From positions 32,001 to 96,000 of the IMG/VR virus record IMGVR_UViG_3300001598_000001: a DNA stretch of 64,000 nucleotides; one strand, given 5' to 3'. The translations under genes and the position numbers were made by a program. Source of the stretch: a virus. Lineage: Duplodnaviria; Caudoviricetes. Under the pieces are notes generated by a model. That model made no database searches and was not told where the DNA came from. It saw only the letters and a list, made by a program, of their open reading frames with translations. Shown here piece by piece: positions 1 through 64,000 of the stretch (position 1 is the stretch's first letter; each line of letters starts with the position of its first letter).

Positions 1-134
1 GTGGTAGTTTTCTCTTCTTTTTGTTTTAGAAGTTCACCAACCTCTCCTGAATTAAGTAATTTAGCAATTTGTGCTAGAGTTTTTACATCTACATCTTTTT
101 GCATTAATAATTCTTTTAATTCTTCTTTTGTCAT
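1..134 (-). CDS. Hypothetical protein, partial (runs off the left edge)
   Basis: ATG at 134 preceded by AGGAGG; MTKEELKELLMQKDVDVK... stays open to the window edge. Confidence 0.6.
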   Translation of the reverse strand, partial: MTKEELKELLMQKDVDVKTLAQIAKLLNSGEVGELLKQKEEKTT

Positions 135-150
135 ATTTTTCCCTCCTTTA

Positions 151-336
151 TTAATTTTCATCAATTTTAAATTCACCAACACGGTTGCCATTATAATCAA
201 TAATAGCTCCATTGGTACGACCATTTTTAATTTGCTCTACTATGGTTTGTAGAGTTATAGCAACAGCTTCGAGACAAAGGTTTTCATCTTCATCTCTAAA
301 AGCTGCATTACCAGTAGTAAATACTATAGTTACCAT
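151..336 (-). CDS. Small phage hypothetical protein
   Basis: 61-aa ORF, GGAGG RBS, TAA stop, tightly packed in the operon. Confidence 0.75.
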   Translation of the reverse strand: MVTIVFTTGNAAFRDEDENLCLEAVAITLQTIVEQIKNGRTNGAIIDYNGNRVGEFKIDEN

Positions 337-348
337 ATTTATACCTCC

Positions 349-2835
349 TTATCTATTAGCGCATAAAGCACCATATTGTCCTTTAATAGATGTCTCAACA
401 ACACTATTTTTATGAGCCTTAGCCCATCTTAATAAAAATTGTACAATTTCAGGTGTTGGATTACAATTTTGTAAACCATGAACTTGTCTTACAGTCCCGT
501 CATTTAAAATTTCCATAGTAAAATATGGAGTTTCAATATCATTTTTCTTACGAATAAATAATACATTAGTAGTACCATTTGCAATTGGTTCTACGAATCC
601 ACCTACACAATGATGTAATTCAGATCCTTCACGAGTTAAATTTGCAATTGATTTAGGAGGAATAATACAAAGATCTTCTTTTTCATCGATCCATTCCCAA
701 TCTTTAACTCTTTTAAGAGCTTTGTCAAAAGCAGCAGCTTTAGCAGCATCTTGATATCTTGTAATTATATCACTTATATAATCATGCAGATGTTGTAAGT
801 GCTTGTCATCATTTGGTCTAACAAGATAAACTTTAGGATCCCAAAGATCTGGTCTGTTGATTCTTGTTGCTAATAATTCTAAACGCTCTCTCATATTGAG
901 ATAATCATTATAAGTTGTAGGATCGGAGAATTTTACCATGAATTTAATTTTATCTTTTGGAGATAATTTATCCATGATTTCTTTGACCCCTCCACGAGAG
1001 TAATCAGACAAATTATGAGAACCATAATAGTTTCTTCGATTTACCATAGCCTCTCTATTATTTTTAATAAAATTTAATACTAATTGAAACGTATCTAAAT
1101 CTAAACAATTTAGATCTCCAATTATTTTACTTATATTATATAATGGTGGAATAACACTATCATCACTGAAACAATCTCCATCTGGATGATCAATCATTTG
1201 TTTATTAATTGATTCTTGACAAAAATTATTTACTAAACTTAATTGCTTATTAGATAGTAAAAATACTTCTTTCGCATTTTTACCCTTGGAATTAATTGCC
1301 ATTTGTCCATGGTAATCGCCATAATATTTCTTTGTATTGCTTAAGTCTCTTAAACAATCAGCAGAAGTTAAACCTCCTACTAACAATATAGCAGCTAATA
1401 ATCCAATATTGTTGGTTTTAATTAATTGTTCACACACAACATCTTTTTGGGAACATAATAAACTAAATCCAATACTAGACCAGGTATTAGGAGTAATTGC
1501 ATCTTGAATTTTAATCCATTTATTAGAAGATGTACTAACCCAATTACTCGTATCATTATATCTGTAAATATGTTTAGTAATAAATAATACTTCTGGTTTT
1601 TGATCTAATAATAATTTAATATTAGTATTGTCCCAAACTTCATCAAATGATTTTAAATAAGTTATACTATGTGGAATAACATTATCATATTTTTGATGCC
1701 AATTATTATCATTATTGTTTTTAGTGGCAGTAGAAAATAATTTTGTAATAGTTCTTTCACTAGCGACACTACTAGTATAACAACCATGAGGATTTCCAGT
1801 AATTATTTTCTTTTTACCTGTGATGGTATTTAAAAGTAATAAATTCTTTTGATGACTTTGTCCTGATATTTGAGTAATCAAGATATATTCATTTTGTCTA
1901 TCAAAATATAATTCTAATGTACGTTCTGGATATTGAATATTCAAAGAATTAATTAAATTGTCTAAATTAGTTTTTGCAGTTTGACTGCTTTGTGTTACAC
2001 TTGTTCCGTTAGGACAGTATAATAAAGTTAATAGGTCTGTCCAATTGGTAATAACTTCTTTATCAGTTTTTGCAACATAATTGGCACTAATAGTTGGTTT
2101 GTCATATGAACTTAGTTGAAAAAATTCTTTTAACTTTTCTTGAGTTTCTGGAGCAAAATCAAGATCTTTATCATTTTTATCGTATGATTTAACACCAAAA
2201 ACTTTGTTATTGGCCAAGTCTGGAATGTATCCATCATAAACCCCAACATATTTATTACCTTGTTTGCTTTTTACACGATAATATTCTGGAATTTCTTCGA
2301 CATTTTTAACTATAAGAAAAACTTTGTGTCCATTCTGATCTAACTTTTTTAACATTTCAGCATTACGCTGAGAAGTAAGAGATTCATTGTCTCTTAATCT
2401 ATTATAACGACTACCATTTGGAGAAATTACATATCTTACAATATCTCCATTAATATTAGTCATAGTTTTTAAAAAGACAGCAGTACCATCTTTAAAAATG
2501 ACTAAACCACCGCCATAATATCCTGGTCCAGAATAAAGATGAGGATTTTGTTTATAATCTCCGACTCTATTTAGAACCATATAACGCTGTATTTCAATAC
2601 AATTTTCATAAAATATAAAACTACAGCTTGTTAACGTCCAAAATCCTTGTGTTTGATGTATAACAATTGGATTCTTCAAATTTTTACAAACTCTTTGATT
2701 GAAATAGTCTGTACGAGACAAACGGCCAAAAGGTTCTTCGGATTTTTTGCTGCGATCAAACCTGTCTCCTTTACTGGTATAATAAATACCAGATTCTGTT
2801 ACTAAAACAGTGTCTCTTTTTGTAATATCTATCAT
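349..2835 (-). CDS. PcfJ-like domain protein
   Basis: 828 aa. C-terminal LCIIPPKS..LTREGSELHHCVGG..LFIRK..PYFTMEI..VRQVHG matches the PcfJ-like domain pattern. All 11 Trp are TGG. Confidence 0.75.
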   Translation of the reverse strand: MIDITKRDTVLVTESGIYYTSKGDRFDRSKKSEEPFGRLSRTDYFNQRVCKNLKNPIVIHQTQGFWTLTSCSFIFYENCIEIQRYMVLNRVGDYKQNPHLYSGPGYYGGGLVIFKDGTAVFLKTMTNINGDIVRYVISPNGSRYNRLRDNESLTSQRNAEMLKKLDQNGHKVFLIVKNVEEIPEYYRVKSKQGNKYVGVYDGYIPDLANNKVFGVKSYDKNDKDLDFAPETQEKLKEFFQLSSYDKPTISANYVAKTDKEVITNWTDLLTLLYCPNGTSVTQSSQTAKTNLDNLINSLNIQYPERTLELYFDRQNEYILITQISGQSHQKNLLLLNTITGKKKIITGNPHGCYTSSVASERTITKLFSTATKNNNDNNWHQKYDNVIPHSITYLKSFDEVWDNTNIKLLLDQKPEVLFITKHIYRYNDTSNWVSTSSNKWIKIQDAITPNTWSSIGFSLLCSQKDVVCEQLIKTNNIGLLAAILLVGGLTSADCLRDLSNTKKYYGDYHGQMAINSKGKNAKEVFLLSNKQLSLVNNFCQESINKQMIDHPDGDCFSDDSVIPPLYNISKIIGDLNCLDLDTFQLVLNFIKNNREAMVNRRNYYGSHNLSDYSRGGVKEIMDKLSPKDKIKFMVKFSDPTTYNDYLNMRERLELLATRINRPDLWDPKVYLVRPNDDKHLQHLHDYISDIITRYQDAAKAAAFDKALKRVKDWEWIDEKEDLCIIPPKSIANLTREGSELHHCVGGFVEPIANGTTNVLFIRKKNDIETPYFTMEILNDGTVRQVHGLQNCNPTPEIVQFLLRWAKAHKNSVVETSIKGQYGALCANR

Positions 2836-2855
2836 ATTGTTGTTTCCTCCTTATA

Positions 2856-3284
2856 TTATTGGACTCTAGTAAGTCCTCCTCCAAACGCTTGAACGCAAAT
2901 GGTTCCATATTCTGAAAAGTCAGGAACACTTTTATTCCAAACATAAGCATATGGAAAGAATTTTGTTCCATTGGCTTCTAATTTATCATCTACTTCATCT
3001 TCTCTATATTTAGAAACGATGAGTAATGAATAACATTCGCCAAATTCAAATATTTCGTGAGTAGCGGCATATACCATGTCTCCTGTTCTTTCTTCATAAG
3101 CACAAATATAATCTTCTAATTCTTTTTCGCCGTTATCAGCGGTTGCATAATAACCACCGAATCTTTCAAAAAAGGTAATTACACCCTTTTCTTCAAAAGC
3201 TTTAATATATGGTTTATAAATATCCATTTGTTTTAATCTAATTAAAGCTAATGTTTTTTGTTCTTCTTTTGTTAATAATTCCAT
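2856..3284 (-). CDS. Phage hypothetical protein
   Basis: ORF with AGGAGG RBS before MELLTKEEQ. Confidence 0.75.
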   Translation of the reverse strand: MELLTKEEQKTLALIRLKQMDIYKPYIKAFEEKGVITFFERFGGYYATADNGEKELEDYICAYEERTGDMVYAATHEIFEFGECYSLLIVSKYREDEVDDKLEANGTKFFPYAYVWNKSVPDFSEYGTICVQAFGGGLTRVQ

Positions 3285-3435
3285 AATTTTAATTTCCTCC
3301 TTTATGAAATGTAACAAACAACAAATGAACCTAATTGGTTCTTCAATCGTCTGTATAAATAAAACGTTCTTTTTATTCTGGGAACGTTATAGACCAGAGA
3401 ATATTTTTATAGAATATTCAAACTATTGATGAAAA

Positions 3436-4020
3436 TTACCAATCTTCTTCTTCATCATCGTCATAGTCGTCGTAATCATCGTCGTAACAATCATCACAAT
3501 CACAACTACAGGCAGCTCTTTCTTCAAGAATAGCAGTTTTTGCTTTTTCAACTAATAAAGCATCAATTGCTTCTTCTGGTAAAGTAATACCAGTTAATTC
3601 TTCTGGAAGGCAAGCAAGCTCTTCATTGTTAAGAGTGTAAATTTTATTAGTTTCATAACTAATCATTAATTTAACTCCTTCAACTTCAACTTCTTTGGAT
3701 GGTTTAATACCAGCTTCAGTAGTTTTACAAGCAGTTTGAATATAAGACATTGTTTTATAAACATTTCCACCTGTGGCTTTTAAAGCTTCTCTTAAAAGCT
3801 TTTCACAGGCTTTCTTATCACTTTCGGTAACATAACCAAAAGCTAAAGCTTTACATGGTTCACCATCAATAACTGGTGTACAATATCCATATCCATTGCT
3901 TTGAAATTGGATGGTAAATTCAGTTTGATTGAGTTCACCTTCATGTGTGTTGATTTCAACACTAGTTGCAGTTGCAACTGCTTCTTCTGCGTCAACTAAG
4001 ACTTTCTTTTCATTTTCCAT
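3436..4020 (-). CDS. Hypothetical protein with Cys/Asp-rich acidic tail
   Basis: 194 aa, GGAGG RBS, ends CSCDCDDCYDDDYDDYDDDEEEDW. Confidence 0.75.
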   Translation of the reverse strand: MENEKKVLVDAEEAVATATSVEINTHEGELNQTEFTIQFQSNGYGYCTPVIDGEPCKALAFGYVTESDKKACEKLLREALKATGGNVYKTMSYIQTACKTTEAGIKPSKEVEVEGVKLMISYETNKIYTLNNEELACLPEELTGITLPEEAIDALLVEKAKTAILEERAACSCDCDDCYDDDYDDYDDDEEEDW

Positions 4021-4206
4021 ATTAATACCTCCTATATTGTATCAGTTCTTGAAATTATCTCCGCTGCCTGGTCGAATGGATCGCCAGGATTTATTGCCTT
4101 ATTCTATGGTAACTGACATAAACCCATATTAATATTAATTATTTAACGACGCTAATATTAAAACGTCTATATAATAACAGAGATATAATCCCTGGGGTTT
4201 TAATAC

Positions 4207-4389
4207 CTATTGTATTGTAAAACCACTTTTAAGTATATCTACCAACTCCCAAACCATTAGTGTATCTGTTAAAATAGGACTATAGTTTTTACAAAACAAT
4301 CCATCATCCTGTTTAATAAAATCAGTTTGATCGTTGTGATATTTCAATATTGTACCATTTGGTAATGCTTTAATTTCTTCTAATGTCAT
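4207..4389 (-). CDS. Small hypothetical protein
   Basis: 60 aa, AGGAGG RBS. Confidence 0.65.
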   Translation of the reverse strand: MTLEEIKALPNGTILKYHNDQTDFIKQDDGLFCKNYSPILTDTLMVWELVDILKSGFTIQ

Positions 4390-4407
4390 AGCTTTTCCTC
4401 CTTATTT

Positions 4408-5988
4408 TTAATTTAAACTTTGTAAAATTAATTCTATTGGTTCATAATTTTCTGTTGAACCTATCAAAGTAATAATACCATTTTCAATATGATAATTATA
4501 ATTTGTTGTGGATAAAACATCAAAAGTTTGAATTGTTCTATTATTAATTAAAACCAAATCTTCTCCAATAATTTCAGACAATACTTCTTTTTCTCCACCA
4601 CTACAATGATCAATAATATTATAATAAGCTATAATACTATTATTACTGTATACTAATAAAATATCATCACTATGCATAAAACATGAATTAATAGCATAAT
4701 TATGTAAATCAAATGGATATATATCTTTTTGTTGATATACACCTGTAATTATATCAATTGTAGCAAACAATGTAGTAAAGACATTATATCCACTTTGATA
4801 ATGTTTATGTTGATTGGTTAAATAAATTAATCCATTTTCAATTTTATATGGATGTTCATTAACGAATCCATCTTCTAAAAATCTATTTGGAATTTTAAGT
4901 TGATCAAATATGTCGGTAGTAGTTAAATCGCGCATTGTGAAATCTTCTTGCATTAATTTAAAACTATCATATGCGTTTCCGTCCCAGTGACCTAAAATCA
5001 TTTCATGGGTATTAGTCATAAAAGGAATATTAGATACTGAACTAGTATTACAATTCTTTTCTTTTACAAAAACAAAGTGTTTTTCTGTATCTATTCTATC
5101 AATTTTATCATTCCAAATGTAATAGAACCCATATTTATCCTTCCAAATATCATAAACTATAACATTTGGATTTTGAATTACTGGAATGATTTTTAATTCA
5201 TCATTTTCTAAAACAAAATCATAATAACTATTACTATTTGATTGTATTTGAACCAAACCATTATAGATATTATAAATGTGTTCTTTGATTGAATAAATTT
5301 TTCCAGTAGTATTGTTTATCAAATATGATTGTCTAGTGTTATCAGAATAATAATCACATAAATCATATAAATCTATTCCATCATCATTCATTCCTAAACT
5401 ATGTCTTTGACTCATACCCATTGGTACAAATGACATAAATGTAAATTTAGTACCAACATAAAGTTTATCAATTTCAGAACTCAACTCCTCTTGAGTGATT
5501 TCAATTTGATCATCTGGATCAACTCCATTAACATCTCTAGAAATATTTGTAATAGTTTTAGTAAAAGTAATTTCTATTAATTGGTTGTTTTCAATTATTG
5601 GATCATCAGCAGTAATTTCTTCTGTTGATCCTACTAAAACATATCTTGGTAAAATTTCTTCTTCTGGAGTTTCTTCTTCGGATTCACTTTCATTACCCGA
5701 TTCTGGTTCAACTTCTGCACTTAGTTTTTTAATTCCAAGTTGTTTCATACCTGATATATTAGCAGTTAATCCTTCTAGGGTATCCAAGGTTTCGATTGAA
5801 GCATTAGATACTGTAGTTGTATTAGCACTAACATGGTCTTTTATTGTACTAATGGTATTGATAATTGTGGTGGTGTTGCTTGGTGTACAACATACACTTA
5901 TCATACTTAAACCTATTAAAGTACAAATAATTGAGTGTTGCAAAATTTTCTTTGCAATATTTGTGTTTGTATTATTTTTCTTATTCAT
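4408..5988 (-). CDS. Putative secreted or membrane-anchored (lipoprotein-like) protein
   Basis: 526 aa. Basic N-terminus, hydrophobic stretch ending in Cys (LIGLSMISVCC), Thr-rich and acidic linkers, beta-rich body. Confidence 0.6.
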   Translation of the reverse strand: MNKKNNTNTNIAKKILQHSIICTLIGLSMISVCCTPSNTTTIINTISTIKDHVSANTTTVSNASIETLDTLEGLTANISGMKQLGIKKLSAEVEPESGNESESEEETPEEEILPRYVLVGSTEEITADDPIIENNQLIEITFTKTITNISRDVNGVDPDDQIEITQEELSSEIDKLYVGTKFTFMSFVPMGMSQRHSLGMNDDGIDLYDLCDYYSDNTRQSYLINNTTGKIYSIKEHIYNIYNGLVQIQSNSNSYYDFVLENDELKIIPVIQNPNVIVYDIWKDKYGFYYIWNDKIDRIDTEKHFVFVKEKNCNTSSVSNIPFMTNTHEMILGHWDGNAYDSFKLMQEDFTMRDLTTTDIFDQLKIPNRFLEDGFVNEHPYKIENGLIYLTNQHKHYQSGYNVFTTLFATIDIITGVYQQKDIYPFDLHNYAINSCFMHSDDILLVYSNNSIIAYYNIIDHCSGGEKEVLSEIIGEDLVLINNRTIQTFDVLSTTNYNYHIENGIITLIGSTENYEPIELILQSLN

Positions 5989-6059
5989 ATTCTTTCCTCC
6001 TTTTAATTACAATAACAAACAGATTTTAGTTAACGTCGACAATCCTAACCGACACAAGA

Positions 6060-6245
6060 TTACCAACACTTTCTGTTATTCTTAGCTTTTTTCTTAGCTT
6101 TAATTGTTTTATCAAAGTTAATTTTTGCGTAATCTTTTTTACCGTAAGATTTTGCATTTTGTGCGGTTTTGGACCCAGATTTTCTGGTCTTTACAAAACC
6201 ACCAACTTCATAATCTTCATAATCTTCATAATTAAAGTACATCAT
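6060..6245 (-). CDS. Small protein with acidic N-terminus and basic C-terminus
   Basis: 61 aa, GGAGG RBS. Confidence 0.65.
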   Translation of the reverse strand: MMYFNYEDYEDYEVGGFVKTRKSGSKTAQNAKSYGKKDYAKINFDKTIKAKKKAKNNRKCW

Positions 6246-6360
6246 TGTTATTTCCTCCTATAGATGTATATAATTCTTTATATGGTAGAATTACACCACT
6301 TGCTATAACGGGCAGGTCCCAGTGTTGTTTCCAACACTAAAAAATATAATGTATAATAAA

Positions 6361-6690
6361 CTAATTCCAGTAGTCTGCTTCAACAGTTTCATAAAAACCA
6401 CCATCTTTTAACAGCTCTGTTTCTCCATATTCATTAATACGACTCAATGGTAGCATTAATGATTCATCTTCCTCATCATTAGATATAAGAGCAATCGATT
6501 CTCGATCAATATAAAATCTTATAACATCTTCTCCTAAAGTATATCCATTTATTTTATATACTTTGTATAAAAAACGCATAAATGCTTGATCAATTGAAAC
6601 GGCTTGTACTATCATTTCAATATAATAAGCATTTTCATGATAGTCATAATAATAGCCATTATAGCTATATGACTGTAGTTCTTTTTTCAT
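6361..6690 (-). CDS. Hypothetical protein
   Basis: Likely start MKKELQ at 6690 after AAGGAA; TAG stop. Confidence 0.65.
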   Translation of the reverse strand: MKKELQSYSYNGYYYDYHENAYYIEMIVQAVSIDQAFMRFLYKVYKINGYTLGEDVIRFYIDRESIALISNDEEDESLMLPLSRINEYGETELLKDGGFYETVEADYWN

Positions 6691-6701
6691 AGAATTCCTT
6701 T

Positions 6702-6878
6702 CTATTCGACAGGTTTTTCTTTCCATGGAATAAAAAATAAAATATTCTTTATTTCATTAAACAAAAACTTATTGAATTTTTTAAAGTCACCTGTAAACAA
6801 TGTGACTATTTCGATTAATACCAATGCAAATAAAGCATACATACATGCTATTAACCATAGATAGAATAAAGTTTTCAT
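6702..6878 (-). CDS. Small membrane protein (missed by the ORF track)
   Basis: MKTLFYLWLIACMYALFALVLIEIVTLFTG..., 58 aa, AGGAG RBS, fills the gap between neighbours. Confidence 0.55.
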   Translation of the reverse strand: MKTLFYLWLIACMYALFALVLIEIVTLFTGDFKKFNKFLFNEIKNILFFIPWKEKPVE

Positions 6879-6879
6879 T

Positions 6880-7197
6880 TTATTCTCCTTTCTTGTTTAC
6901 GCTTAAAAGCGTATAAATGTCGTGCATTTTGTGAACAGCGTTTTGATAGTGTTGTTCAATTTCTTCTAGTTGCATAATGGCAACATTGATGCCTAGTGTA
7001 GTTAAATCTACATTAAGACATTCAGTTTGTAGGAAATCTGGATGTTCATCTTTTAGTGTAAGACTATTATAATCCTTAATTTCCTTAGATTGTGGGTAAT
7101 TAACCCAGAGTTGAGCTTTTTCTGTGCCAAGTGTATTGGCTTTAATTGAAAAACCAAGCTCTTTTAATTTTTCAATCTTTTCTTTTAAAGTACACAT
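6880..7197 (-). CDS. Hypothetical protein
   Basis: 105 aa, GGAGG RBS. Confidence 0.7.
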   Translation of the reverse strand: MCTLKEKIEKLKELGFSIKANTLGTEKAQLWVNYPQSKEIKDYNSLTLKDEHPDFLQTECLNVDLTTLGINVAIMQLEEIEQHYQNAVHKMHDIYTLLSVNKKGE

Positions 7198-7597
7198 GTT
7201 ATATTTTTCCTCCTTTGTACTTATTGAGCTTTATTCGCTCATTAAAACCCTCAATATATTTTAATTGAAAGTTTTAATGAAGGAATAAATCCTTCATTTA
7301 AGCAATAAAATTATTAACTTCGGAATTATTTTGAAAACTCCAAAAGTTATTATTCCATATTAAATTTACTTCTAAATATTCGTTAGATTTAATTAGTGTT
7401 AAATCGGAGTGATTTTTATTTAAAACAAAATCAATATGGTTTTTGTTTAGCCACTCTATTAAACTTGCTAAACAACTTTCATTAAATACTCCATTAAAAT
7501 GTCTAATTTACATTTTTCATTTCATTAAATGATTCTATTTTATTCTTATCTGGTCTCCGTCTCCACCCGACATAAAAAAAAGAAGGGTTCTCCCCTT

Positions 7598-7780
7598 CTA
7601 TATCTCCTCGACTTCCCCTGTTACCTCTTCTAAGAATTCTGAAAGCAAAAGCATAATCATTCCTTCTTTACTGTATATTTCTTCTGAGTCATATTCTACC
7701 TTCCTTGGTAATTTAAATGTACGACCATAATATGTGACATTTGTAATATAGCGTTTTGATGATGTATTATTATCCTTCAT
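7598..7780 (-). CDS. Small hypothetical protein
   Basis: 60-aa ORF overlapping the upstream stop. Confidence 0.55.
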   Translation of the reverse strand: MKDNNTSSKRYITNVTYYGRTFKLPRKVEYDSEEIYSKEGMIMLLLSEFLEEVTGEVEEI

Positions 7781-8024
7781 AATCTTCCATCTCCGCTATT
7801 TCCATAGCTTCATTATATAACTCTTCAGGTGTAAGAAGAGAATAGTCTTCGTCATGATAAGATCCTATTTCCTCTCCATAAATATAAACTGTTAAATATC
7901 CGAAACGGTCAACAGAGTAAGTTACATCTGGGACATCATCTTCTAAATCAAACTCTGCATTTCTTTGTTGTGCGGTAAGATCAAAGATTTGTTGCTCCCA
8001 AGTTTTTTTCTTTTTTCTGCCCAT
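7770..8024 (-). CDS. Small acidic protein, apparent paralog of 8782..9018
   Basis: 84 aa; shares the Y-x-VD-x-x-G-x-L-x-VY-x-x-G-x-x-(I/L)G pattern. Confidence 0.7.
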   Translation of the reverse strand: MGRKKKKTWEQQIFDLTAQQRNAEFDLEDDVPDVTYSVDRFGYLTVYIYGEEIGSYHDEDYSLLTPEELYNEAMEIAEMEDYEG

Positions 8025-8025
8025 A

Positions 8026-8337
8026 TTATTTGGCCTCTTTTAATTTATCGATAATATGTTTAAGCATACTGTTTTCATCATCGCGTCTCCAACAATAATC
8101 TTGTAAATCGGAAATTTGATTATTTAAACCTTGAATACGACGTTGAGATTCTACCAATGCTGTTTGCTTGGTGGCAAGTTCTTCGACAAGCATTACTATA
8201 AGTTCTCTGTAATGTTGAATAGCAGCATAATCTTGATTGTAATCACTGCCGTTGCAACACTCGTTGCGTTGATATTTAGTGTCATCGTCGTCTATCAAGC
8301 CAAGTTCTTTGGCTAATTCATAATATTCATCATTCAT
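8026..8337 (-). CDS. Coiled-coil hypothetical protein
   Basis: 103 aa, heptad-like C-terminal half. Confidence 0.7.
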   Translation of the reverse strand: MNDEYYELAKELGLIDDDDTKYQRNECCNGSDYNQDYAAIQHYRELIVMLVEELATKQTALVESQRRIQGLNNQISDLQDYCWRRDDENSMLKHIIDKLKEAK

Positions 8338-8338
8338 A

Positions 8339-8686
8339 TTATTTTTCTTCCTCCTGATTAATATATAAAGTTCCTGTTAATTCTTGAGAAGTGTGATGTC
8401 CTTCTTTGACAAGAATGAATTGAGAATAACTTCCGTAGTCGCAAGAAATAACCGAATCACTAAATAAGATGGAACGGGTATAGTGAGACGATGCTTGAAG
8501 TTTTGGATCTAAAATTAATAATGGATTAACGCGGTGAATATTTTCTTCATAAACATAAGAAACTTTTAAAACCGTGTCAACATAATCAACAGATCCCGAA
8601 TACCATGCAACAGTATATTCTTTGAGTTCCGAAGATTCAAAATCTAAAAACTCGACTGATTTAAGTTGAACATTTTTCTCTGCCAT
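8339..8686 (-). CDS. Hypothetical protein
   Basis: 115 aa, AGGAGG RBS. Confidence 0.7.
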   Translation of the reverse strand: MAEKNVQLKSVEFLDFESSELKEYTVAWYSGSVDYVDTVLKVSYVYEENIHRVNPLLILDPKLQASSHYTRSILFSDSVISCDYGSYSQFILVKEGHHTSQELTGTLYINQEEEK

Positions 8687-8781
8687 AAATCGGATAACCT
8701 CCTTTGAGTATTATTTAAAACAAAACGTAATATACATTTATTGAAATAAAATGTAATTACAGTTATATAATATGCTAATTT

Positions 8782-9018
8782 TTAAAATAGAAAAGAATCA
8801 ATAATATCTTCAACCTCTTGTTCTAAATCTTGTTTAGTCATTGAAGCGTATTTTTTCTTTTTAAATGTGCCAAGTAATTTACCATCTAAATAAACATAGA
8901 GTACACCATTTTCATCTACATAGTATTGACCTGGGCCTGTGCTGTCCAAATCAGCAAAACCGCCTGTATTAACATCTTGAGTAGAACAAAGTAGGCGACG
9001 AAGTTGAAATATTAACAT
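8782..9018 (-). CDS. Small protein, apparent paralog of 7770..8024
   Basis: 78 aa, AGGAGG RBS. Confidence 0.7.
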   Translation of the reverse strand: MLIFQLRRLLCSTQDVNTGGFADLDSTGPGQYYVDENGVLYVYLDGKLLGTFKKKKYASMTKQDLEQEVEDIIDSFLF

Positions 9019-9104
9019 AAATAATTATCCTCCTGTATATGTGCTTTGAAACCTATATTTAATTATTTTTTTATTTTTTGAATTATATATAAGTAGTAAT
9101 TATA

Positions 9105-9158
9105 ATATACACGCGCATCGCGTATATGTGTGCGTATATATACGTACGCGCATACGTA
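9105..9158. repeat. Alternating purine-pyrimidine tract
   Basis: 9119-9158 is a perfect 40-bp YR alternation (cgcgtatatgtgtgcgtatatatacgtacgcgcatacgta). Confidence 0.8.
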
Positions 9159-9176
9159 AATGAAAAGTTAATTTAA

Positions 9177-9503
9177 TTAAATATCTGTACTTTGAACATT
9201 TACCAAACTAATACCCAATCTAACTAAATCACGAAAGATTGGATAATCATTTGCATCAACATAATCTATACAACGAATACCGACAGGACTTAAATATGCC
9301 CCTTCGTCTGCATCATAATAAATAAATGTTAAAACAATATAATTTGGTTCTTTGTCAGGATTAAAATGATTACAATTATATTCAATACTTAATCCTTCAC
9401 AAACAGGAAGGGTAACGAATCCTTCCGCATTGTCGCTGATTTTAGTAATATTACAAATACGGAAAGGACCTCTAATTATATCGATAGTAGAACCCGATAT
9501 CAT
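9177..9503 (-). CDS. Hypothetical protein
   Basis: 108-aa ORF within the operon. Confidence 0.7.
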   Translation of the reverse strand: MISGSTIDIIRGPFRICNITKISDNAEGFVTLPVCEGLSIEYNCNHFNPDKEPNYIVLTFIYYDADEGAYLSPVGIRCIDYVDANDYPIFRDLVRLGISLVNVQSTDI

Positions 9504-9505
9504 AA

Positions 9506-9724: not shown

Positions 9725-9747
9725 ATGTTTCTTCTCCTTTTATATGT

Positions 9748-11116: not shown

Positions 11117-11118
11117 AA

Positions 11119-14019: not shown

Positions 14020-14030
14020 TGCTTTCCTCC

Positions 14031-14396: not shown

Positions 14397-14487
14397 AGTT
14401 ACCAATCTCCTCAAAATTTATATTTTATATCATAATTTGTTTGATTTTTTAATTAACTATATAATATAGTTAACCTCATCTATTAAT

Positions 14488-53500: not shown

Positions 53501-56289
53501 CTAAAAATAAATATGCACAAATGAGTGATGCCGAAATTATTAAACAATTTGGCAGTGTTGCAAGCGAATTAAAGTATGGAATAAATTGACTTGGTGGTTG
53601 GACAAATTTTAACACTAATAAAATGACTTCTTTAGACGTTGTTGCTCAGGAAGTTAGAAAATATTTAGAAGATAATGTTGATAAAACTTTCCAAGACAAT
53701 TTTAACTCTGATGTTCATTTACGCGAAGAATTATCTACTTTATTAAATGAAAGTGTTCTTGTTGATTATTGAAACCAAACTATTGAAAGTTTAACTAAAC
53801 AATTGGAACAAGGTGAAAATGTTAGTGAAGAACTACGCAAAGCTAATAACGAACTAAACAAAGTTCAAAATGCTATTAATTTAAAACAAAACTATACAGA
53901 TGAAATTAATTATAAATATGCTCAAGCAGCATTATCTGCTTCTGGTTTAGAAAATTTAACTCAAGCACAATTAAATAATATGGGTTATAAAGATAAACTT
54001 AATAAAATTGCAGAAAATATGGAGTCTTATGGTTATTCTGTTTATAATTCTGATGGTGTGTTATCAGCTCAAGCTCAAACATATATTGAAAATGCTATTA
54101 GAAGTAATAGTAAAATATATGGATCTGTTAGTGGTCAAGTCTATTCATTAGCTGAAGTTTTAAACAAAGATAATGAAAATTTATTTAGAAATTATCAAGA
54201 AATTCTATGGCAGTGATCAGAAGCTTTGGGTGTAAGTGTTGATGAATTAGATGATTTAAAAGATACTTTAGGAGATATTACCTTAGCTCAAGTTTTAAAA
54301 ACTCCAGACGAAACACGTCAAAATATTTCTGAACTAACTTCTATGTTCACATCTATTTCTTCTTCTACTGGTATTACCGCTGAAAATATAGAGAACATTA
54401 TTACAAAGTTCCCACAATTATTACCTTATGCAAGTAGTGTTGGTGATTTAATTGGGGGGTTAACCAAAGGCATAGAACAGTATAGTAAATTATATGCATA
54501 TCAGATCACTAATCAAATTTTAAATAGTGAATCTGTACTTTCAGATATTCAAAAAAATATGAGAGAGGGTACTGTAGATGTTGATATAAGTGAAGATGAT
54601 CAAAAACAATTATATGAAACATTGTTATCTAACTATTCATTTGGTAATGGAAGTGTTTTAAATGATATGCTTGGTTTAATATGGGGTAATGCTGAAGAAA
54701 ACGGTATAAGTGAGGAAAATCAAGAAAAATTACGAACTATTGTAGAATCTTATTTACCAGATATAGAAAATACGCTTGAGCGAGATTCTATTAAGCAACA
54801 AATAGATTATCAACAAAAATTATTTGATCAACAAATTAATAATTTACAAGAACAAAAAGAAATGTTAGATAATATAAATCATCAACGTGAGTATGAAAAT
54901 AAATTAATCGAAGCTAAACTCAAATTAGAAAATTCTCAAAAAGAAAAGAAAAGAGTTTGAAGATCTGGAGTTGGTTGGACTTATGAAGCTGATCAAAACA
55001 GTATTTTAGAAGCCCAAAAACAATTAGAAGATGTTGAAAATGAAAAGAACGTCTCTAAAATTGATCAAGAAATTCAATTATTGAATTCACAAAAAGAGTT
55101 ATTAGCTAATATTGCTAGTAGTGAAGAATTTGAAAATATGCGAGATTCGTGAAAAGGTTGGTCTGAACAAATGAAGCTTTATAATGAAGATCAAGAAACC
55201 ATAATCACTAATTTATCAACTTTATATAGTTCAATTAGCAAAATTTCTACTAAGGATATAGCTGAAGACATAGCTGATGCTGGAGTAAATAATGCTGATG
55301 AAAAATTAAATACATTAGATACTTTATATAATACAGCTCAATCTTATATAACTGGCGAAAATAAAAATGCTCCAACTACAGTAACTGCTTCCCAAGAATA
55401 TGCAGATTGAGAAAATAATCGAAATAATGCTCTAACAGCTTATCAAACAAAAGCCAATGAGTATAAGAACGTTATTACTCAAGATTGACAAACCAAACAC
55501 TCAGATCATGCAGCCATTATGAAAGCTTCTCAGCTTCATAATCAACAAGATACTATCATGATTGATGGAAAAGCCTATACTGTTGGCAATCAACCATTAA
55601 GTGACACAGATCCTTACTATCAATGAGTACAAGATGACCTTCGCGCAGGCGAAAAAGGCCCTCAAGACAGTAATGGTAAGGGTAAAGGTAAGTATGTTAA
55701 AGTATTTGATCCAAAAACAAGTACAGAGACAAACGAAGATGGAATATTAAATTATTCTCGAAGTAAAAGTAAAACATATGGAGAGGTTAATGGTTCTGAT
55801 GATAAAAAAGATTATAGTAGTTTAGTGTTATCAGATGTGGCAGCAAGTTTGAGTGATGGTACTATTTTAAGTAGTGAAAGTGGAACCGTAGAATATGTTA
55901 TGGTTATGAACCATCAACTTAGACAATTAGATCCGAAGGCCAAAGGAACTTTAGATTTAAATAGTCATGGCGTTTTATTGAATGAATTAGGAACAGAAGC
56001 AATTGTAACACCTCAAGGTACAATTACAGCTCTTCCTTCTCACTCAGGTATTGTGCCAGCTGATATTACTCGTAATTTATGAGAATTAGGAGAAATTTCT
56101 CCTACACTTACACATTTGCTTGATCATTTGAATAATCAAATGGTTCCTGGAAAGAGTGTATTTGGTAATGATGAATCATTTAATATTAATACTATTAATA
56201 TGACAGTTAATGCTGATAATAGTTTTGATGCTCAAAAATTTATTGAGAGTGTTAGACAACGCGCAGCTTTAACAAAACATAATCGTTAA
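44554..56289 (+). CDS. Giant tape-measure protein with N-terminal RNA-polymerase-like and PD-(D/E)XK nuclease-like domains (TGA=Trp)
   Basis: All track fragments share one frame: 3911 aa with ~28 TGA. TP901-type TMP core at ~51340-52260 (EWLRQGY, GNALKMMLSRF). GDYDGD at 48514; DLKT at 50461. Confidence 0.85.
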
Positions 56290-56316
56290 AAAAAGAAATA
56301 CAAGGATGGTGGTAAT

Positions 56317-57231
56317 ATGATTAAAGATTATTATATTTATGATGGTACAACTTTATTAGGATTGTTGTATATTCCCGTTGGAGTAAGTTCAGATAAAATT
56401 ATTCCTTCGTTTATTACAACACTTGGTAAAGGATGTTTTAAAAATCAAAATTTTTCTACTATCATTATACCACCATCCATAAAAATTATTGAAGATAATG
56501 TTTTTGAAAATTGTAAATTTTTAACATCACTAGAAATTCCATCTACAGTTGAAACTGTTGGAAATAATATTTGTTGTAATTGTAACAAATTACAAACTTT
56601 TAAATATTCATCCACAACACAAATGGGTAAATTTATTTTACAAAATTGTTATATGTTAAAAGAGTTAATCATTAATGATGAAAATTTTCGTGTTTGATAT
56701 CACAATTCTGAAAAAGTATTCGGAATAGGTGTTTTAGATTATGTTACAGATAATGGATATAAAATTTATAAAGGACACTGAAGTATTGAAGAATTATTAG
56801 GTTGGGGATTACCAGTCGGTAAAGAAAATTTAATTTATTTTGTAGAATATAATAATAAAGTTTGGTATGATCCTTCTTTAGAACAAGCTTATAAAGGATG
56901 TCAATATCTTAATAGTAATATGTCGATTTGTGATTTTTTTCATAAAAAATTTTTACCTATGGATACAATCACATGATCGGAATTTTCTATTATATTGGGC
57001 ATTTGTTCGCAAGGAAAACCATTCTGAGATTTAATGTGTCATAAAGATTTAAATACTAACAATGATAATATTTCTGTAAATGACTTAATCAAAGTTTTAC
57101 AAAAACATCAATTTTTATCTCCTATATTGTTAAGATGAGTAGAAGTGTTACAACATAAAAATGAATGTTTTACAAAGTTTACAGATATTAGTTATGAAAA
57201 TATAAATTTATCTCAATATTTTCAATTATAA
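56317..57231 (+). CDS. BspA-type leucine-rich-repeat protein (TGA=Trp)
   Basis: IPSFITTLGKGCF / IPPSIKIIEDNVFENC..L / IPSTVETVG repeats; 304 aa. Confidence 0.7.
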
Positions 57232-57485
57232 TTTAGAGCGAGATAGTTAATTCTATCTCCTCTAATATGAAATTTTATTTTTACTTAAAATATCTATATA
57301 TTATATTAGTGGTAAAAATCGTTAGTAACTAACCTTATACGGTAAATTACTTGATAAAATTTCCACTATTAATATCAAGATGTTTTAATTAGACTATAGA
57401 TATTTTAATTAAATATATAATTTATATTATAGACTCAATAAAAGAGTCATTTTATTATACGCTTAAGGGCAAGGAGGAAAAAATT

Positions 57486-60400
57486 ATGGCAGTTTATAAA
57501 CCAACATATTGTTACCCTTTTTTAAACACAATTGATATTCGTTTAGGTATAACACAAGATAATAATCTTCCTTGCGAATTTTTAAAATGTAAAGTAGATT
57601 CATCTAATATAAATATTACGGGTTATAAAATTAGATTATTAGATGGTAATAACAACCAAATTTTCCCTATAGCTAACAATGGTGAAGGATATATTTCTTC
57701 CGTTGATGGATTATCAGGTGAAAGTGGTAGCGCTATTGTACCATTTGATAGACAAGGAATAAATTCTGGATTAAACGGAACATATTTACAAATACCTTTT
57801 TTCCAAAATTATAATCACCCAATATATTTTAAACATCCTAAAAACGAACAATCTGCTGCTGCTTATAGTTCTCATAATGCTATATATTATCGAGGAGATT
57901 ATGTGGTTGATTATGTTATAGGTTTCGACTCAGAAGATCGACAAAGCGGTGATGACGCAGCAAATCCAAATAATTGGGTAGTTAGTCCTACAGATAATAA
58001 TATACTTTACTATAAACCAAGTGTTGAAAGTGAAACTCCTTTTGATAATTTTCAAATTAATGGAGACACTCCTATTTTAGGTCAAACTATTTTATACATA
58101 GGTCCGATATCAAATGAAGAAACATCAGAAACCCCTAATAATGAATACAATGGGGTTTATCGTTTGGGTAAAACCACTTATGAGGATAAAATTATTGTTA
58201 CTTTAACCAAAGTATTTAATTTATTTCACGCTGTTGGTAAATGAAGTATTATTAATACCAGTACTTCTATTACTCCAAAAGAAGGGGTGCTTTGGAACGA
58301 TTTACGTGTTGAACAAACAATTGGTCTAGACACTGGTTTAGGACAATTGCAACAATGAACATCTGGTGCATGAGCACCTGTACCTGTAGAAGATTTTTTC
58401 CAAGTTACAGACAACGTATTTACCCCTGATCGTCGTTGAAATCCACCTTCTGGTGCTATTTGGGCTAATAAAAATAATCTTTCAGAAAACAATGATGCTT
58501 TTCGTTGGCAATATAAAAAATATTCTTCTGGATATGAATATATTACTGTTTTAAAAGGTTATATGCACAATACTATATTTAAATCATCTGGAAGTAATAT
58601 GGTTAAAGATTCAACAATAGTCATGTGGGTAGATTCTGAAGGCAATGACTTGCCAGGAATTGCTTCTGATTTACGTAGTTATAAATGAGAAATAACTTTA
58701 TATCAAGGCAATTATGAACCTGGTCACGAATCTAATTATAGAAGTATTCAATATACTAATATTAATCCACAATATTTAGACATGGTATTAACCAGTGGAA
58801 CTATTTTAGGTTCAAGACCATCTCGTATTCAAATTGCTAGTTCAAACGAGGATAATGCAATTTTACCTGGTAACAATAAAGATACTTTAGTATTACAAAC
58901 ACGTTATATGCAATTGTATAATTTTGCACCTACAGACAATAATCCTGAAAATTTATCTAATATTGGTAACAGGTTTTATGTATCATCTTATGATTCTGCC
59001 TATGGACATGTTTATCCATTAGAAGGTAGTATTGATGGTAATATTTTATCGAACATTACTTCTCCTGGTAACGGAAGATGTCAATTTTTCAAGCATTCAA
59101 ATGATCCAACTGCTATTTTAGATGGCGAAATTGTAGATTATTGTATTGATATTGATAATAAAAACATTGTCTTTAAAGGATGAGAAGATCAAAGTGTTAC
59201 TAGTGCTCGTTTAGTACCTGTTAATCCTAATGATGCAACTTCTCCTGATGTTACTTTATCTACTTATGGTTTAGGTTATACAGTTAAAACAGGCGATCGT
59301 GTTTTACTTATTAATCAAACTAATCCAGAACAAAATGGAGTTTATAGAGTTAATATTGAAAAAACTGGTTCTGGATCGGCTGTTACTGATTATACAGGAT
59401 GATCTAGAGATGCTTCTTACGACTCATGGGGCAAGTATTTAGGAGCGATTATTTATGATCGCTATACTCATAAAAATTATGAATCTTTAGCTAATTCTGG
59501 TGGCACTTTATGAAATCCTAAAGCACAAGGTAGTGGAGATTCTTATTTATTCTTCTCTGAAGAAAAACCTATTATCTTGTTTAATGATAAAATTAAAACT
59601 GTTGTTACTTTTCTAGGAACTTTAAAAGAACCTACTATTGACAGTATAAAAGTTCAAACTGGAAATAGATTATTAATTAATGAAAATGGCCAATGAAAAA
59701 TTTATACCGCAACAGTAAATGAATCTATAACACCAAGTACTGTTGATTGAACTGAAGATCAAAGTGCAAAAATTACTAATACTGATTATATTCAAATTAC
59801 CGATGGTCGAGTATATGGTCATAATATTGTTCAAAATGGTGTTGTTACAGACGCTTTAAGTACAGCATGTGTATTACAAAATACAGTAAACTATACTTAT
59901 ATTTCACCTTATATTAGTATTACTAAAAACATGTATTTAAAAATAATTGGACATAATATTGATTATGCTAATAAAACACCAAGTGCATGGTTAAAAATTA
60001 ATGATATTGATACTAAGATATGAAGAATTAAACACGATACATTGTCTCAACCATTATTATCATATAGTAATGAAGATAATAATATACCTTATAAATATGA
60101 AGTTCGTTCATATTTTAAAGTTTCAGATGAGAACCCAGTATATTTTTATGAGACACCATATTTAACTATAGAAATCAATGGTAAAAACGGTGAGTTGTTA
60201 ACTGGTACTACTTATGGACCTTTATTAACTGCTGAGCAATTAGATACTTATGCAGTTCTTGAAGGTGGAGAAATATATAATCCTTTTTATACTATTATTT
60301 ATTTATCAAAAGCAAATGTTAATGGTCGAGCTGTTCGTTTAACTGCTCATTATACTCAGTTTGAATCAATTTCTTGGGAAAATTATCGCTGAGTTTTATT

Positions 60401-62033
60401 AGATTCTAATGGTAATATTTTACAAGATACAGGTAAACGCTATGATAAAAATATGGAAGTTATTTTCTATGGTTTATCTAATGATCATGTTAATTCAAAT
60501 AATAATTATTATAGTGTTATTTATGTAGAAGACAACGCAGGTAATATATTACGTTATACTTTGAAATTAGTAATTACGCCTCCACAAAATACTGGAGACA
60601 ATCTTGTACCATTTACAGCATGTTTTGATCAAGCTACTCATTCAGTTAAATTAAATTATCAAGATTATTATTTAACTTTACCTACTGTAAAAGATAGTGA
60701 AAAAGCTTTTATTAATGATCAAAGCGAATTATTTAGACAAGATAAAAGTATTATTTATGAAACAGATAAAATTTTAGATAATGATGTGTCATATATGAAA
60801 ATTACTCATTATCAAGCTGATACTGGAGTTCCTATTTATTTTGGAAATTTAGGTGAAGATTATCAAAGTTCATATAATACTTCATTGGGTCTTGCTAATT
60901 TTAAAGGAATTAATTATCAATATGGTTTTGTAAGAAATGAATATACTATTGACCCAAATTATGTTTTAACTTTATCAGGCGATGATAATGGTCAATTATA
61001 TTATCAAACTGAAATTGAGCTCAATGATAATTATTGTGGTCAAATTTTTGATTTATCAATAGATAAAAGTGAAAACAGTCCAACTAAATTACATTTAATT
61101 ACATTTTTACCTGATAATTTTAGTGATGATGTTAATAACGAATTAAATTCTTTGAGAAATCAAATTGGGTTATTTGTAGACACTACTGAAGCTGATAATA
61201 TTACAATTGATTTTGATCGTGCTCAATATAGCAACGATTTAAATTTATTTAATATTAATACTGAAGATGCTGTTCCATATTATTATTTACAACCATCAAC
61301 TGCTACAGTTAATATAGAAAAAGGTGAATTTTTACATTATAACTTAAGTGATTTTGATTCTAGTGATGAAATTATTAAAAATAAAAATTTATACATTTTG
61401 GGTCAAAATGATAGTAAATTTAATTCTGAAATATTAAATGGACAAACTTTTAGTAATATTAATATATATAATAGTGCTACTAAATTTTTTGGAAATTTAA
61501 ATTTAATTTGTGAAAATGACGTACCTGATAATTATTTTATATTAAACAATAATAATAAAAATATATCTAATATAAGTACAAATGCTCCTTCATATTGAAT
61601 GGAAAATAATAAATATATTATTATGGATTCAAATCAATATATGGGTCAAAATAATAACGATAATATTTTCCTAAATTATGAAGTTACTGATACAGATGGA
61701 AATATATGGCCAAGCTCTAATGAAGAAAACTATTATTGGAATGAAAATAGTGAAACAATTACACCTAATCTTAATGCACCTAGTATTAAAAAATTTTTAT
61801 TAAATTCTAATAAAGATGAGACTAGCGTTGTTCAAATGATACCTTATGCTCGTCATAATGGTTTGCATAATAAAACAATAAGTTTTATAGTAAAACTTTA
61901 TGATGTTCGACAAATTTGTAATTTATTAGATGCTGGTACTTGCGATATTGTTTATGAAAACAATAAATTTATAATTAGCGATGCTAGCAATAATAAAGAA
62001 TTAGGTGTTTGTATTATACAAATTAATATATAA
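57486..62033 (+). CDS. Large tail tip / baseplate protein (TGA=Trp)
   Basis: Five track ORFs in one frame give 1515 aa; contains GDRVLLINQTNPEQNGVY, a phage tail motif. Confidence 0.7.
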
Positions 62034-62047
62034 GGAGGACAAGAATA

Positions 62048-63217
62048 ATGGCAAATATGCGAAAAGTTAAATTAACATTATCTAATGTTTCTTCTAGTAT
62101 GTATCACGATGGTCAACTTAAAAGTTTATATAATTATTTATGAAACGATGCTGATGCTGACCAAATTATTAGTGGAATCACAAATTCGAATGGTAAGTAT
62201 ATAAAAAATACTAATTACGAATCATTGATTTCACAATCATCTAATAAAAGTCCTATTATATTAAATTATCAAAAAGACGAAGCACATAATATTGATTTAT
62301 ATGGTGGCTATGTTCAAAATAATTATAATACTGGCATGTATATGAGTTATTATCGTCGTGAATATGATAAATATACTTATGACGGTAATAACTTTGAAGA
62401 ATATAAAGGTGAATGAGAACCAGTAGCAGTTAAATTTTCTAATGGATATTTTAGAGATTTTAATATTAAAAACGATCATATTTATCAATATATTGCTTAT
62501 AATCACATTAGTTTAGAACCTAATGTGATAGAAACAGATGTTATACAAATTTTTGCTAATAATATAGATCCTCAACAATCAGCTTTGTTTGGAGAGCCTG
62601 TGTTTTGCAAATGAAATGAATGAAGTATTATTGAATTGTTACCTGTCGAGAATCCTATCGATGCTCCAATAGTTAAAAAAGCTTATAAAGCTAATTTAGA
62701 TCAACTATGATTATTTAAATACGATCTTCAAGTTGGACCTCAAACTCAGAATATTTCTCGAAATGATATTCAAACATTAGGTCAATTTAATAAATTAGGT
62801 TATAGTGAACAGAATTTTATTTCTGGGGATGTAACCGCATTAATGGGTTCAGAAATTGTTGCTTGAAATAAACAAGTATATACTGAGCGACTATGGCGTA
62901 GTCGTGAGAATCCATTATCTACCAATGAAAAAGTAAAAATGTTAGAACAATGAAGAAAACTTGTTGCTTCTAAAAATCCTAAATTATTAAAAGATATGAA
63001 GGGACAAAGTTGAATTGTTCAAATCGTTGGTAGTTCAAATACGCCAAAAAATGGTTATTATCAACAACCAGATTCAATAAGTTTTCAATGAAAGCAAATA
63101 GAGTCTTTAGATCACGTAATTATTTATGGAGATTCTGTTGATATTCCTAAATCTGGATGTTCTAATTCAAAAAAATATACTTCTTTTTATCGCAATCCTT
63201 CCTGTTGTCAAAAATAA
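62048..63217 (+). CDS. Tail protein with fibronectin-like and distal-tail-like parts (TGA=Trp)
   Basis: 389 aa, AGGAGG RBS; YYRRE..F.DFN...YQY and PKLLKDMKG patterns. Confidence 0.6.
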
Positions 63218-63320
63218 AGAAGTTAATATAAAACAGGAATATTTTTAAATATAAAAATAAGATGGATAGAAAGTTTGCGATTAGAAATAAAAGGTTTAGA
63301 ATTTAATAAGGAGGATACTT

Positions 63321-64000
63321 ATGGACAATATAATATTACACCATGGTTTTGATGCTAAAACAAAAATTACGATGGCCAGTGGTTCTCGTAAGAATATTGA
63401 AAATTTAGTTGTTGGTGATAAAATTAAATCTTATGATATTCAAACTGGTGAAAACTCCATTGGTGAAGTAATGAATGTCACACGACAAATATGTCCAAAT
63501 GTAGTCAAGTTTGTTTTTGAGTCTAAAGAATTAATAGGATGTAGAGACACTTTGTTTAGAATAGATGAACAATGAAAACAAATAGAAATTGGCGATTTGG
63601 AATTAAAAGAAATTATTATTTTAGAAGAACAAGAACTAATTGAGTTAACTGTTGAGCCTAACCATAATTATTATGTAAATGGTTTGTTGGTTCATAATAG
63701 TGGCGAACCATCTCCAAACGATGTTGTCAGTAAAAAAATTCAATTAAAAAATCGTAGTGGAGAAATTTTATTTCCAACTACAAAATTAGAATTAGTTGAA
63801 GGTTTATTATCAGCTTTGACAGGAAAACAACCTACATTAGATTTTCAAACACCTTATACTCAAGTAGGTAGTAAAAATAAAATACCTCAAATTACGACTA
63901 ATAATTTAGGACAAGTTACTAGTATTACTGAAATAGAAATTGAAGGTGGGGGTGGTGGTACTCCTAGTAGTTATCTTAAAAATGCTTTTGTCAATCAAAG
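63321..64000 (+). CDS. Hint-domain protein / tail fibre, partial (TGA=Trp)
   Basis: GFDAKTKITMASG..K.IE.L.VGD.I and ELTVEPNHNYYVNGLLVHN|S; open to the window end. Confidence 0.75.

Follow-up and report, generated by a model that had tools for sequence, protein, structure and literature searches.

The subject of this report is a 64,000-nt window (the whole stretch of DNA analysed), bases 32001-96000 of IMG/VR record IMGVR_UViG_3300001598_000001, in which a phage of the Caudoviricetes carries many in-frame TGA codons together with a gene for a suppressor tRNA(UCA). The full record is 131,489 bp long with a G+C content of 29%; IMG/VR classes it as having direct terminal repeats, and its CheckV completeness is 100%. 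The 131-kb genome is complete and terminally repeated, and its source is rumen-type. Transcription diverges at around 14.4-14.9 kb of the window, coinciding with the turn of the cumulative GC skew. The features on which the analysis leans, among them open reading frames (ORFs), an RNA polymerase (RNAP) operon and two RNA genes, are as follows:

1..10440, minus strand: window part of a TGA-free early block (genome 1.3-42.4 kb, 41 kb), from ORFs and profile annotation
349-2835, minus strand: PcfJ-like ORF of 828 aa, 11 TGG and no TGA
10421..14414, minus strand: recoded RNAP operon, with a 231-aa ORF (2 TGA), the RNAP and a 127-aa ORF (2 TGA)
10604..10633, minus strand: perfect sigma-70-type promoter, TTGACA-18-TATAAT (12/12), directed into the TGA-free block at its border with the recoded RNAP operon
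11119-14019, minus strand: YonO/RdRP-like two-barrel RNAP, 966 aa, 7 TGA and 7 TGG
18207..20126, plus strand: large terminase (TerL), 5 TGA
20796..22628, plus strand: portal protein, 6 TGA and 7 TGG
27962..29497, plus strand: HNH homing endonuclease, 8 TGG and no TGA, within the recoded structural region
38184..39191, plus strand: tyrosine recombinase/integrase, 5 TGA and 1 TGG
40312..40340, plus strand: perfect sigma-70-type promoter, TTGACA-17-TATAAT, 208 nt upstream of the suppressor tRNA
40548..40642, plus strand: suppressor tRNA(UCA), 95 nt, found by ARAGORN and scoring 59.9 bits with the Rfam tRNA model
40654..41177, plus strand: full-length ROOL RNA (233 bits, gathering score 99), starting 12 nt after tRNA(UCA)
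44554..56289, plus strand: tape-measure-type protein of 3911 aa with a PhageMin_Tail domain, 28 TGA and 12 TGG
56317..64000, plus strand: further recoded late genes, namely a BspA-type leucine-rich repeat (LRR) protein (5 TGA), a 1515-aa protein (13 TGA), a 389-aa protein (9 TGA, 1 TGG) and the start of a 679-aa protein

The first 10,440 nt encode PcfJ-like proteins, a 526-aa ORF and many small ORFs, all of which stop at TAA or TAG. Relatives of this phage (G000) were sought with the terminase in IMG/VR, which gave matches at 62-74% identity, and three near-complete genomes were compared. Two of them, G001 (150 kb) and G002 (155 kb), use the standard code: reading TGA as sense (code 4) adds nothing to their coding density, 13 and 26 of their genes, respectively, stop at TGA, and neither has a tRNA(UCA) gene. 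The third, G003 (145 kb), is recoded, with a coding density that rises from 0.81 to 0.92 when TGA is sense, and has a tRNA(UCA).

An earlier note on this DNA had held that TGA is read as tryptophan in the RNAP and late genes, and coding density, gene length and codon alignments all bear this out. With greedy, non-overlapping ORFs over the whole 131,489-bp genome, coding density was 0.783 under the standard code (code 11), 0.917 under code 4 and 0.808 under code 15 (TAG sense). The code 4 genes were fewer and longer, and ORFs of the window fused into frames of 966 aa (7 TGA), 3911 aa (28 TGA), 1515 aa (13 TGA) and many others. These long frames are not artefacts, since their lengths match those of standard-code orthologues: for 23 TGA-containing genes the median length ratio to the orthologue was 1.00, vs. 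only 0.54 for the longest TGA-free piece. The RNAP orthologue in G001 has 969 aa under the standard code (vs. 966 aa), and the tape-measure orthologue in the same genome is an open frame of 4512 aa (vs. 3911 aa).

For the codon-level test, orthologues were aligned with TGA masked as X and the relatives' codons were read back. The codon facing a phage TGA in ungapped columns was TGG in 48 of 100 cases in G001 and 38 of 72 in G002, the runner-up codon accounting for at most 6; no Gly codon was among the 12 commonest at these columns in the two alignments. As a control, TGG faced TGG at 73% of positions in the same alignments. All five TGA codons of TerL (those at 18363 and 18402 among them) align to TGG in 4-5 non-recoded relatives, and the codon at 18402 lies two residues before the Walker A motif CSRNAGKS, where the earlier note had placed one. 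The five in the recombinase (38328, 38349, 38421, 38862, 39087) all align to W in both G001 and G002; the last is the H/W position preceding the catalytic Tyr, as had been proposed from the sequence of this phage. Comparison of NrdD with a distant solved structure in the PDB (29% identity) put one of three TGA codons on W and is weakly supportive. Phage tRNA(UCA) genes have been tested in E. coli extract in a published screen, and 13 of 13 inserted Trp. Because TGA faces TGG or W in standard-code relatives, the assignment of TGA to Trp is strongly supported and is as firm as sequence can make it.

The more than 170 in-frame sense TGA codons of the genome are unevenly shared among its modules. 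Counted without eight short antisense ORFs that are apparently spurious, the early block (genome 1.3-42.4 kb) has 3 TGA, all in doubtful small ORFs, and 172 TGG; the RNAP and structural region (genome 42.4-108.8 kb) has 146 TGA and 114 TGG; and the replication block (genome 108.9-125.6 kb) has 10 TGA and 63 TGG, at least one of the 10 sitting in a false N-terminal extension. Fisher tests against the RNAP and structural region gave p = 2e-38 for the early block and p = 4e-11 for the replication block. Within the window, positions 1-10440 contain 0 TGA and 28 TGG (11 of 11 Trp codons in the 828-aa ORF being TGG), vs. 113 TGA and 102 TGG in the remainder (Fisher p = 8e-9), so that the description of these genes as using TGG only was accurate. 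Out-of-frame TGA occurs at 68.7 per 1000 codons in the early block vs. 68.9 in the RNAP and structural region, and at 72.7 vs. 71.3 in the two parts of the window. Because these densities are equal, the absence of in-frame TGA reflects selection on the reading frame, not composition or mutation. The roughly 70 genes of the TGA-free block stop at TAA or TAG, since the block has no in-frame TGA. The statement that no gene ends in TGA is true by construction under code 4, and it is supported independently by this block and by seven orthologues that have a TGA stop in G001 or G002 and a TAA stop in this phage.

The TGA-free early genes include those for a RecD2-type helicase, a class-V aminotransferase, a four-region sigma-70 factor, GP88, DprA and two PcfJ-like proteins, and TGA-free genes of the replication block include those for a Rad52-like protein, DnaB, a Toprim primase, DnaE and a metallophosphatase. 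TGA-free genes read identically under both codes. Recoded genes encode the YonO-like RNAP, terminase, portal, recombinase, tape measure, BspA-type LRR protein, a radical-SAM enzyme, NrdD and a PD-(D/E)XK nuclease. The partition that the earlier note had described thus stands as a contrast between the early block and the RNAP and late genes; its strictly positional form does not, as the TGA-free HNH gene in the late region illustrates. The split follows gene and module, not strictly coordinate. The TGA-free HNH endonuclease (27962-29497) suggests a recent mobile insertion from a standard-code source. The same split recurs in G003, where the RNAP has 7 TGA, TGA is plentiful on the structural side, and early and replication genes totalling about 70 kb have almost none. 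Quartet analysis of 25 genes shared by the four genomes gave 255, 191, and 143 informative sites for the three topologies, which weakly favor grouping the two recoded genomes and are consistent with either a single or a double origin of recoding.

Signals for expression were surveyed across the genome. Perfect TTGACA-N17/18-TATAAT sites (12/12) number four, with about 0.5 expected by chance on a rough base-composition estimate. One lies inside the early block, one at window position 10633 (minus strand) on the border where the TGA-free block begins, one at genome position 108806, 139 nt ahead of the first replication gene, and one at window position 40312, upstream of tRNA(UCA). The last probably drives tRNA(UCA) and the ROOL RNA as one transcription unit. 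A Shine-Dalgarno-like motif precedes 69% of genes vs. 7% of random positions, and this usage, with the promoters, would fit a Firmicutes/Bacilli-type host. The phage encodes both a sigma factor and the YonO-like RNAP; the former, a sigma-70-family protein with regions 1.2, 2, 3, and 4 complete, lies in the TGA-free early block outside the window (G000 19037-19891, minus strand). No gene for an RF-1-domain release factor and none for a tryptophanyl-tRNA synthetase (TrpRS) or other class-Ib synthetase was found in G000-G003, and, because this phage is without a TrpRS, we infer that a host enzyme must charge tRNA(UCA).

The tRNA itself has an unusual architecture. The bacterial tRNA-Trp identity set consists of A1-U72, G2-C71 to G5-C68, and G73 (PMC9976931). 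The acceptor of tRNA(UCA) has A1-U72, G2-C71 to G5-C68, G73, and an encoded CCA end, and so carries the full set, and the bacterial genes matched by its T-arm and acceptor 3' half were in all 23 cases tRNA-Trp(CCA). It departs from bacterial tRNA-Trp in its working anticodon, UCA instead of CCA (arm at 40573-40589), and in a variable region of 26 nt instead of a short loop. The 22 extra nt in this region form a second anticodon-like arm, CAGC-GUCCAAA-GCUG, at 40595-40609, whose 7-nt loop equals the tRNA-Trp anticodon loop (U-CCA-A).

Similar arms were found in other phages. In a first scan, keyed solely on the T-arm and acceptor, 12 loci were recovered; 10 had the extra arm, each of these 10 with UCCAA in its loop and three of them also broken up by an intron-like insert, and the other two lacked it. 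When TCCAA was required, 48 loci with very different acceptor stems were recovered. The armed tRNAs represent 42 distinct sequences. In 40 of them the motif is centered in its loop, which has either 7 nt or 9 nt with a mismatched closing pair. Stem pairs 2-5 of the arm each occur as 4-6 pair types and are canonical in 95-98% of the 42 sequences, no shuffle out of 1000 paired as well, slid registers reached 14-67%, and G73 is kept almost throughout. A third scan without the motif requirement returned, among the matches listed, many of the same loci plus at least 11 other long-arm tRNA(UCA). The CCA arm therefore marks a class, not every long-arm UCA tRNA. The latter phage tRNAs (at least 11, within L234-L323) have G1 acceptors and ordinary Ser/Sec-like arms without CCA, and possibly form a separate class of opal suppressors, of Ser or Sec type.

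Occurrence of the arm was also compared with that of synthetase genes. None of 51 records with an armed tRNA (12 of them at least 90% complete) has a TrpRS-family gene, vs. 3 of 15 arm-less records (p of about 0.01 by hand calculation, the three positives being mutually related). These are all three of the records (220-237 kb) whose Trp-type tRNA(UCA) is arm-less. Under code 4, coding density rises by at least 0.05 in 35 of 41 short loci that surround other armed tRNAs, but 26 of 41 gain under code 15 too; this test is noisy because many of the loci are tRNA/tmRNA/OLE/ROOL islands. Some other phages with an armed tRNA(UCA) gene (L040-L050, L088, L101, L106, and L115) have very large tRNA arrays along with tmRNA, OLE-like, and ROOL genes, with 189 Rfam hits in 116 kb. 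In three IMG/VR contigs of 51-126 kb (L040, L041, and L046), an insert of 200 nt or more, resembling a group I intron, splits the armed tRNA(UCA) gene at or close to its anticodon loop, and ARAGORN sees no tRNA there. The literature searched contained no description of such a CCA arm; Borges et al. (bioRxiv 10.1101/2021.08.26.457843) go no further on this point than to note that suppressor tRNAs of non-canonical form might be missed.

We consider it likely that this phage has two coding regimes, with TGA read as Trp in late genes, code-neutral early genes, and a switch between them during infection of a host that terminates at TGA. In such a host, sigma-70 RNAP would start at the consensus promoters that head the TGA-free modules and at the one preceding the tRNA(UCA)-ROOL unit. 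With the suppressor tRNA building up and being charged by host TrpRS, TGA-containing messages would become translatable, that of the phage RNAP included, and late expression would thereby be locked at translation and probably at transcription too. The second hairpin, by copying the CCA anticodon arm of tRNA-Trp, would give host TrpRS the anticodon identity element that a UCA tRNA lacks. This last proposal is held more tentatively: the tRNA may be two-headed, its UCA arm decoding TGA and its second arm (a 5-bp stem with a 7-nt N-U-CCA-A-N loop) presenting the CCA identity to host TrpRS, a possibility to which we give somewhat less than even weight. On this proposal the arm, by showing CCA to the host enzyme, would take the place of a phage TrpRS.

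A standard-code host and a code switch during infection, both suggested by the earlier note, have indirect support. The early genes shun TGA completely over 41 kb, both as a sense codon and as a stop codon, and the replication module does so for the most part; G003 shares the split, and G001 and G002 use the standard code with TGA stops; and the phage has its own tRNA(UCA), with sigma-70 promoters preceding the TGA-free modules and the tRNA. The reading of TGA as Trp stands firmly, and the temporal switch is something we infer. Several observations weigh on the other side. The promoters are consensus matches only, and the one at tRNA(UCA) looks constitutive; should it fire at once, that would speak for a gradual switch and not a sharp one. 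The split also has exceptions, since the nuclease and two small genes of the replication module carry TGA and several late-region genes, such as that for the HNH endonuclease, do not. The timing of the switch and the residue inserted are both deduced from sequence. Finally, metagenome-assembled genomes (MAGs) that match the tRNA span prfB-positive rumen Bacilli and prfB-less Mycoplasmataceae/Malacoplasma.

These MAGs bear on an alternative host. The matching tRNA-Trp 3' half occurred in MAGs of low-GC Bacilli and Mycoplasmatales from rumen and gut and in Patescibacteria. Among five of these genomes tested, prfB is present in three, and the other two have only a prfA-like gene with in-frame TGA, indicating code 4. 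A TerL search in the order of one tRNA-matched Bacilli MAG gave one weak partial match among 106 genomes. Were the host a code-4 rumen mollicute (Mycoplasmatales), TGA = Trp would be an adaptation to it, and the TGA-free blocks would have some other cause, such as a capacity to begin infection in hosts of either code (4 or 11) or recent standard-code ancestry. The low-GC rumen Mycoplasmataceae/Malacoplasma MAGs that share the tRNA-Trp T-arm and acceptor 3' half, two of them without prfB and with TGA inside prfA, favor this idea, and the G+C content, Shine-Dalgarno use, and sigma-70 promoters of the phage fit the class Bacilli generally. We nevertheless think such a host improbable. It would not impose 172 TGG vs. 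at most 3 doubtful TGA over 41 kb at 29% G+C with out-of-frame TGA at normal density, and the avoidance is conserved in G003; sister phages use TGA stops; a phage tRNA(UCA) with a CCA decoy arm would be unneeded; and the three prfB-positive MAGs are a majority of the tRNA-matched genomes tested. A phage of a code-4 host would be expected to use TGA for Trp genome-wide regardless of module, and this one does not.

That TGA encodes another residue, namely Gly (code 25), Ser (from the long extra arm and G73), or Cys/Sec (from the UCA anticodon), is very unlikely. ARAGORN labels the tRNA "SeC," the long variable arm with G73 resembles seryl identity, and code-25 phages exist (Borges et al.). However, about half of ungapped TGA columns show TGG, with Gly, Ser, and Cys codons at a few counts at most, and code 25 was rejected on the absence of Gly codons from the top 12. 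The tRNA has a 7/5 acceptor/T architecture with the Trp set A1-U72, G2-G5, and G73, its 3' half matched tRNA-Trp genes only, and its extra arm, a 4-5-bp stem with a 7-nt U-CCA-A loop, is unlike Ser-type arms. The acceptor/T branch of tRNA-Sec is 8/5 in bacteria and 9/4 in archaea and eukaryotes, and its use of UGA is rare. A tRNA-Sec identity was rejected since it calls for a 13-bp acceptor/T branch and a long D stem, and the acceptor here has 7 bp, the T stem 5 bp, and the D stem 4 bp; the in-frame TGA codons are also far too many for selenoproteins. Still less credible is the view that in-frame TGAs are real stops, produced by pseudogenes, assembly errors, or low-level programmed readthrough without reassignment. 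Nothing specific speaks for it beyond a few single TGA codons in doubtful N-terminal extensions of called ORFs. Readthrough frames equal full-length orthologues, TGA coincides with conserved Trp, the essential terminase, portal, and tape measure carry 5-28 TGA each, and a second genome (G003) has the same pattern, and this view is effectively refuted. Two coding regimes in a host that terminates at TGA is the reading we retain.

Other features of the window lie close to the tRNA-ROOL unit or concern the affiliation of the phage:

41628-41655: terminator-like hairpin, downstream of the ROOL RNA end
44339..44412, plus strand: tRNA-Met(CAU)

Just 3' of the tRNA-ROOL unit, a 403-aa protein (41680-42891, plus strand, 4 TGA) weakly matches acyltransferase/choloylglycine-hydrolase (Ntn hydrolase) and may be an amidase with a role in lysis. 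For many late proteins, PHROGs and Pfam profiles gave no function. In INPHARED, terminase matches were confined to those of distant Bacillus siphoviruses (27-35% identity across part of the protein), with no named relative among them. A crAss-like affiliation was considered and dropped, given a terminase that is not crAss-like and a YonO-type RNAP of 966 aa.

This phage adds a well-controlled case of recoding, in which natural standard-code and recoded relatives permit codon-by-codon comparison. It also adds new details, in that the code switch may be tied to host-type promoters and a phage RNAP may sit behind a translational lock. If the two-headed tRNA is real, it would let a phage reassign TGA to Trp in a standard-code cell without a synthetase of its own, and the CCA arm would be a widespread, undescribed alternative to the TrpRS-carrying solution of the "Jade" phages. 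The architecture bears on how a UCA tRNA could receive Trp from a host synthetase that reads CCA, and is of practical interest for engineering UGA suppressors.

The partition itself is not new, because the model of Borges et al. covers such phages, and this phage is a further case of a published phenomenon; the precedent that the earlier note had cited, of recoded gut phages with recoded codons concentrated in late genes, is sound. Reports of recoded crAss-like and Lak phages came earlier (as cited in Borges et al.). The TGA-recoded "Agate" phages of cattle, at about 127 kb, have close standard-code relatives, standard-code replication genes, and recoded structural and lysis genes, and a mid-infection code switch in a standard-code host was proposed for them (Borges et al.). 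The present phage resembles them in size (about 127-131 kb), ruminant-type samples, and code (TGA aligned with Trp, a tRNA(UCA)), and it also shares standard-code replication machinery, recoded structural genes, and standard-code relatives with few TGA stops; membership of the Agate clade itself would rest on size, source type, and code only. It differs from the Agate account in that its recoded set includes its own YonO-like RNAP and its sigma-70 promoters mark the TGA-free modules and the tRNA, and its homing endonuclease is TGA-free whereas the Agate intron endonuclease is preferentially recoded. The Borges et al. text consulted mentions no RNAP, promoters, or extra tRNA arm. The TGA-recoded Jade phages carry a code-change operon of TrpRS, RF1, and tRNA(UCA) (Borges et al.). 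Here the task would be the same, namely to have TGA translated as Trp at a late stage of infection in a cell that uses the standard code, but this phage has neither a TrpRS nor a release factor.

With Mycoplasma and Spiroplasma, which use code 4, the phage shares the codon meaning and a UCA tRNA with Trp acceptor identity. Unlike in those bacteria, where whole genome and host alike use TGA, here the early genes exclude it and the tRNA has an extra CCA arm. Anticodon-arm mimics recruit aminoacyl-tRNA synthetases in the operator of E. coli thrS mRNA and in viral tRNA-like structures. By analogy, the hairpin in tRNA(UCA) would likewise copy a cognate anticodon loop as a handle for the synthetase, the role proposed for it here; "anticodon-like" elements are mentioned in a review (PMC9976931). 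In contrast to the thrS operator and the viral structures, the mimic in this phage lies inside the variable region of the decoding tRNA itself, adjoining a different working anticodon.

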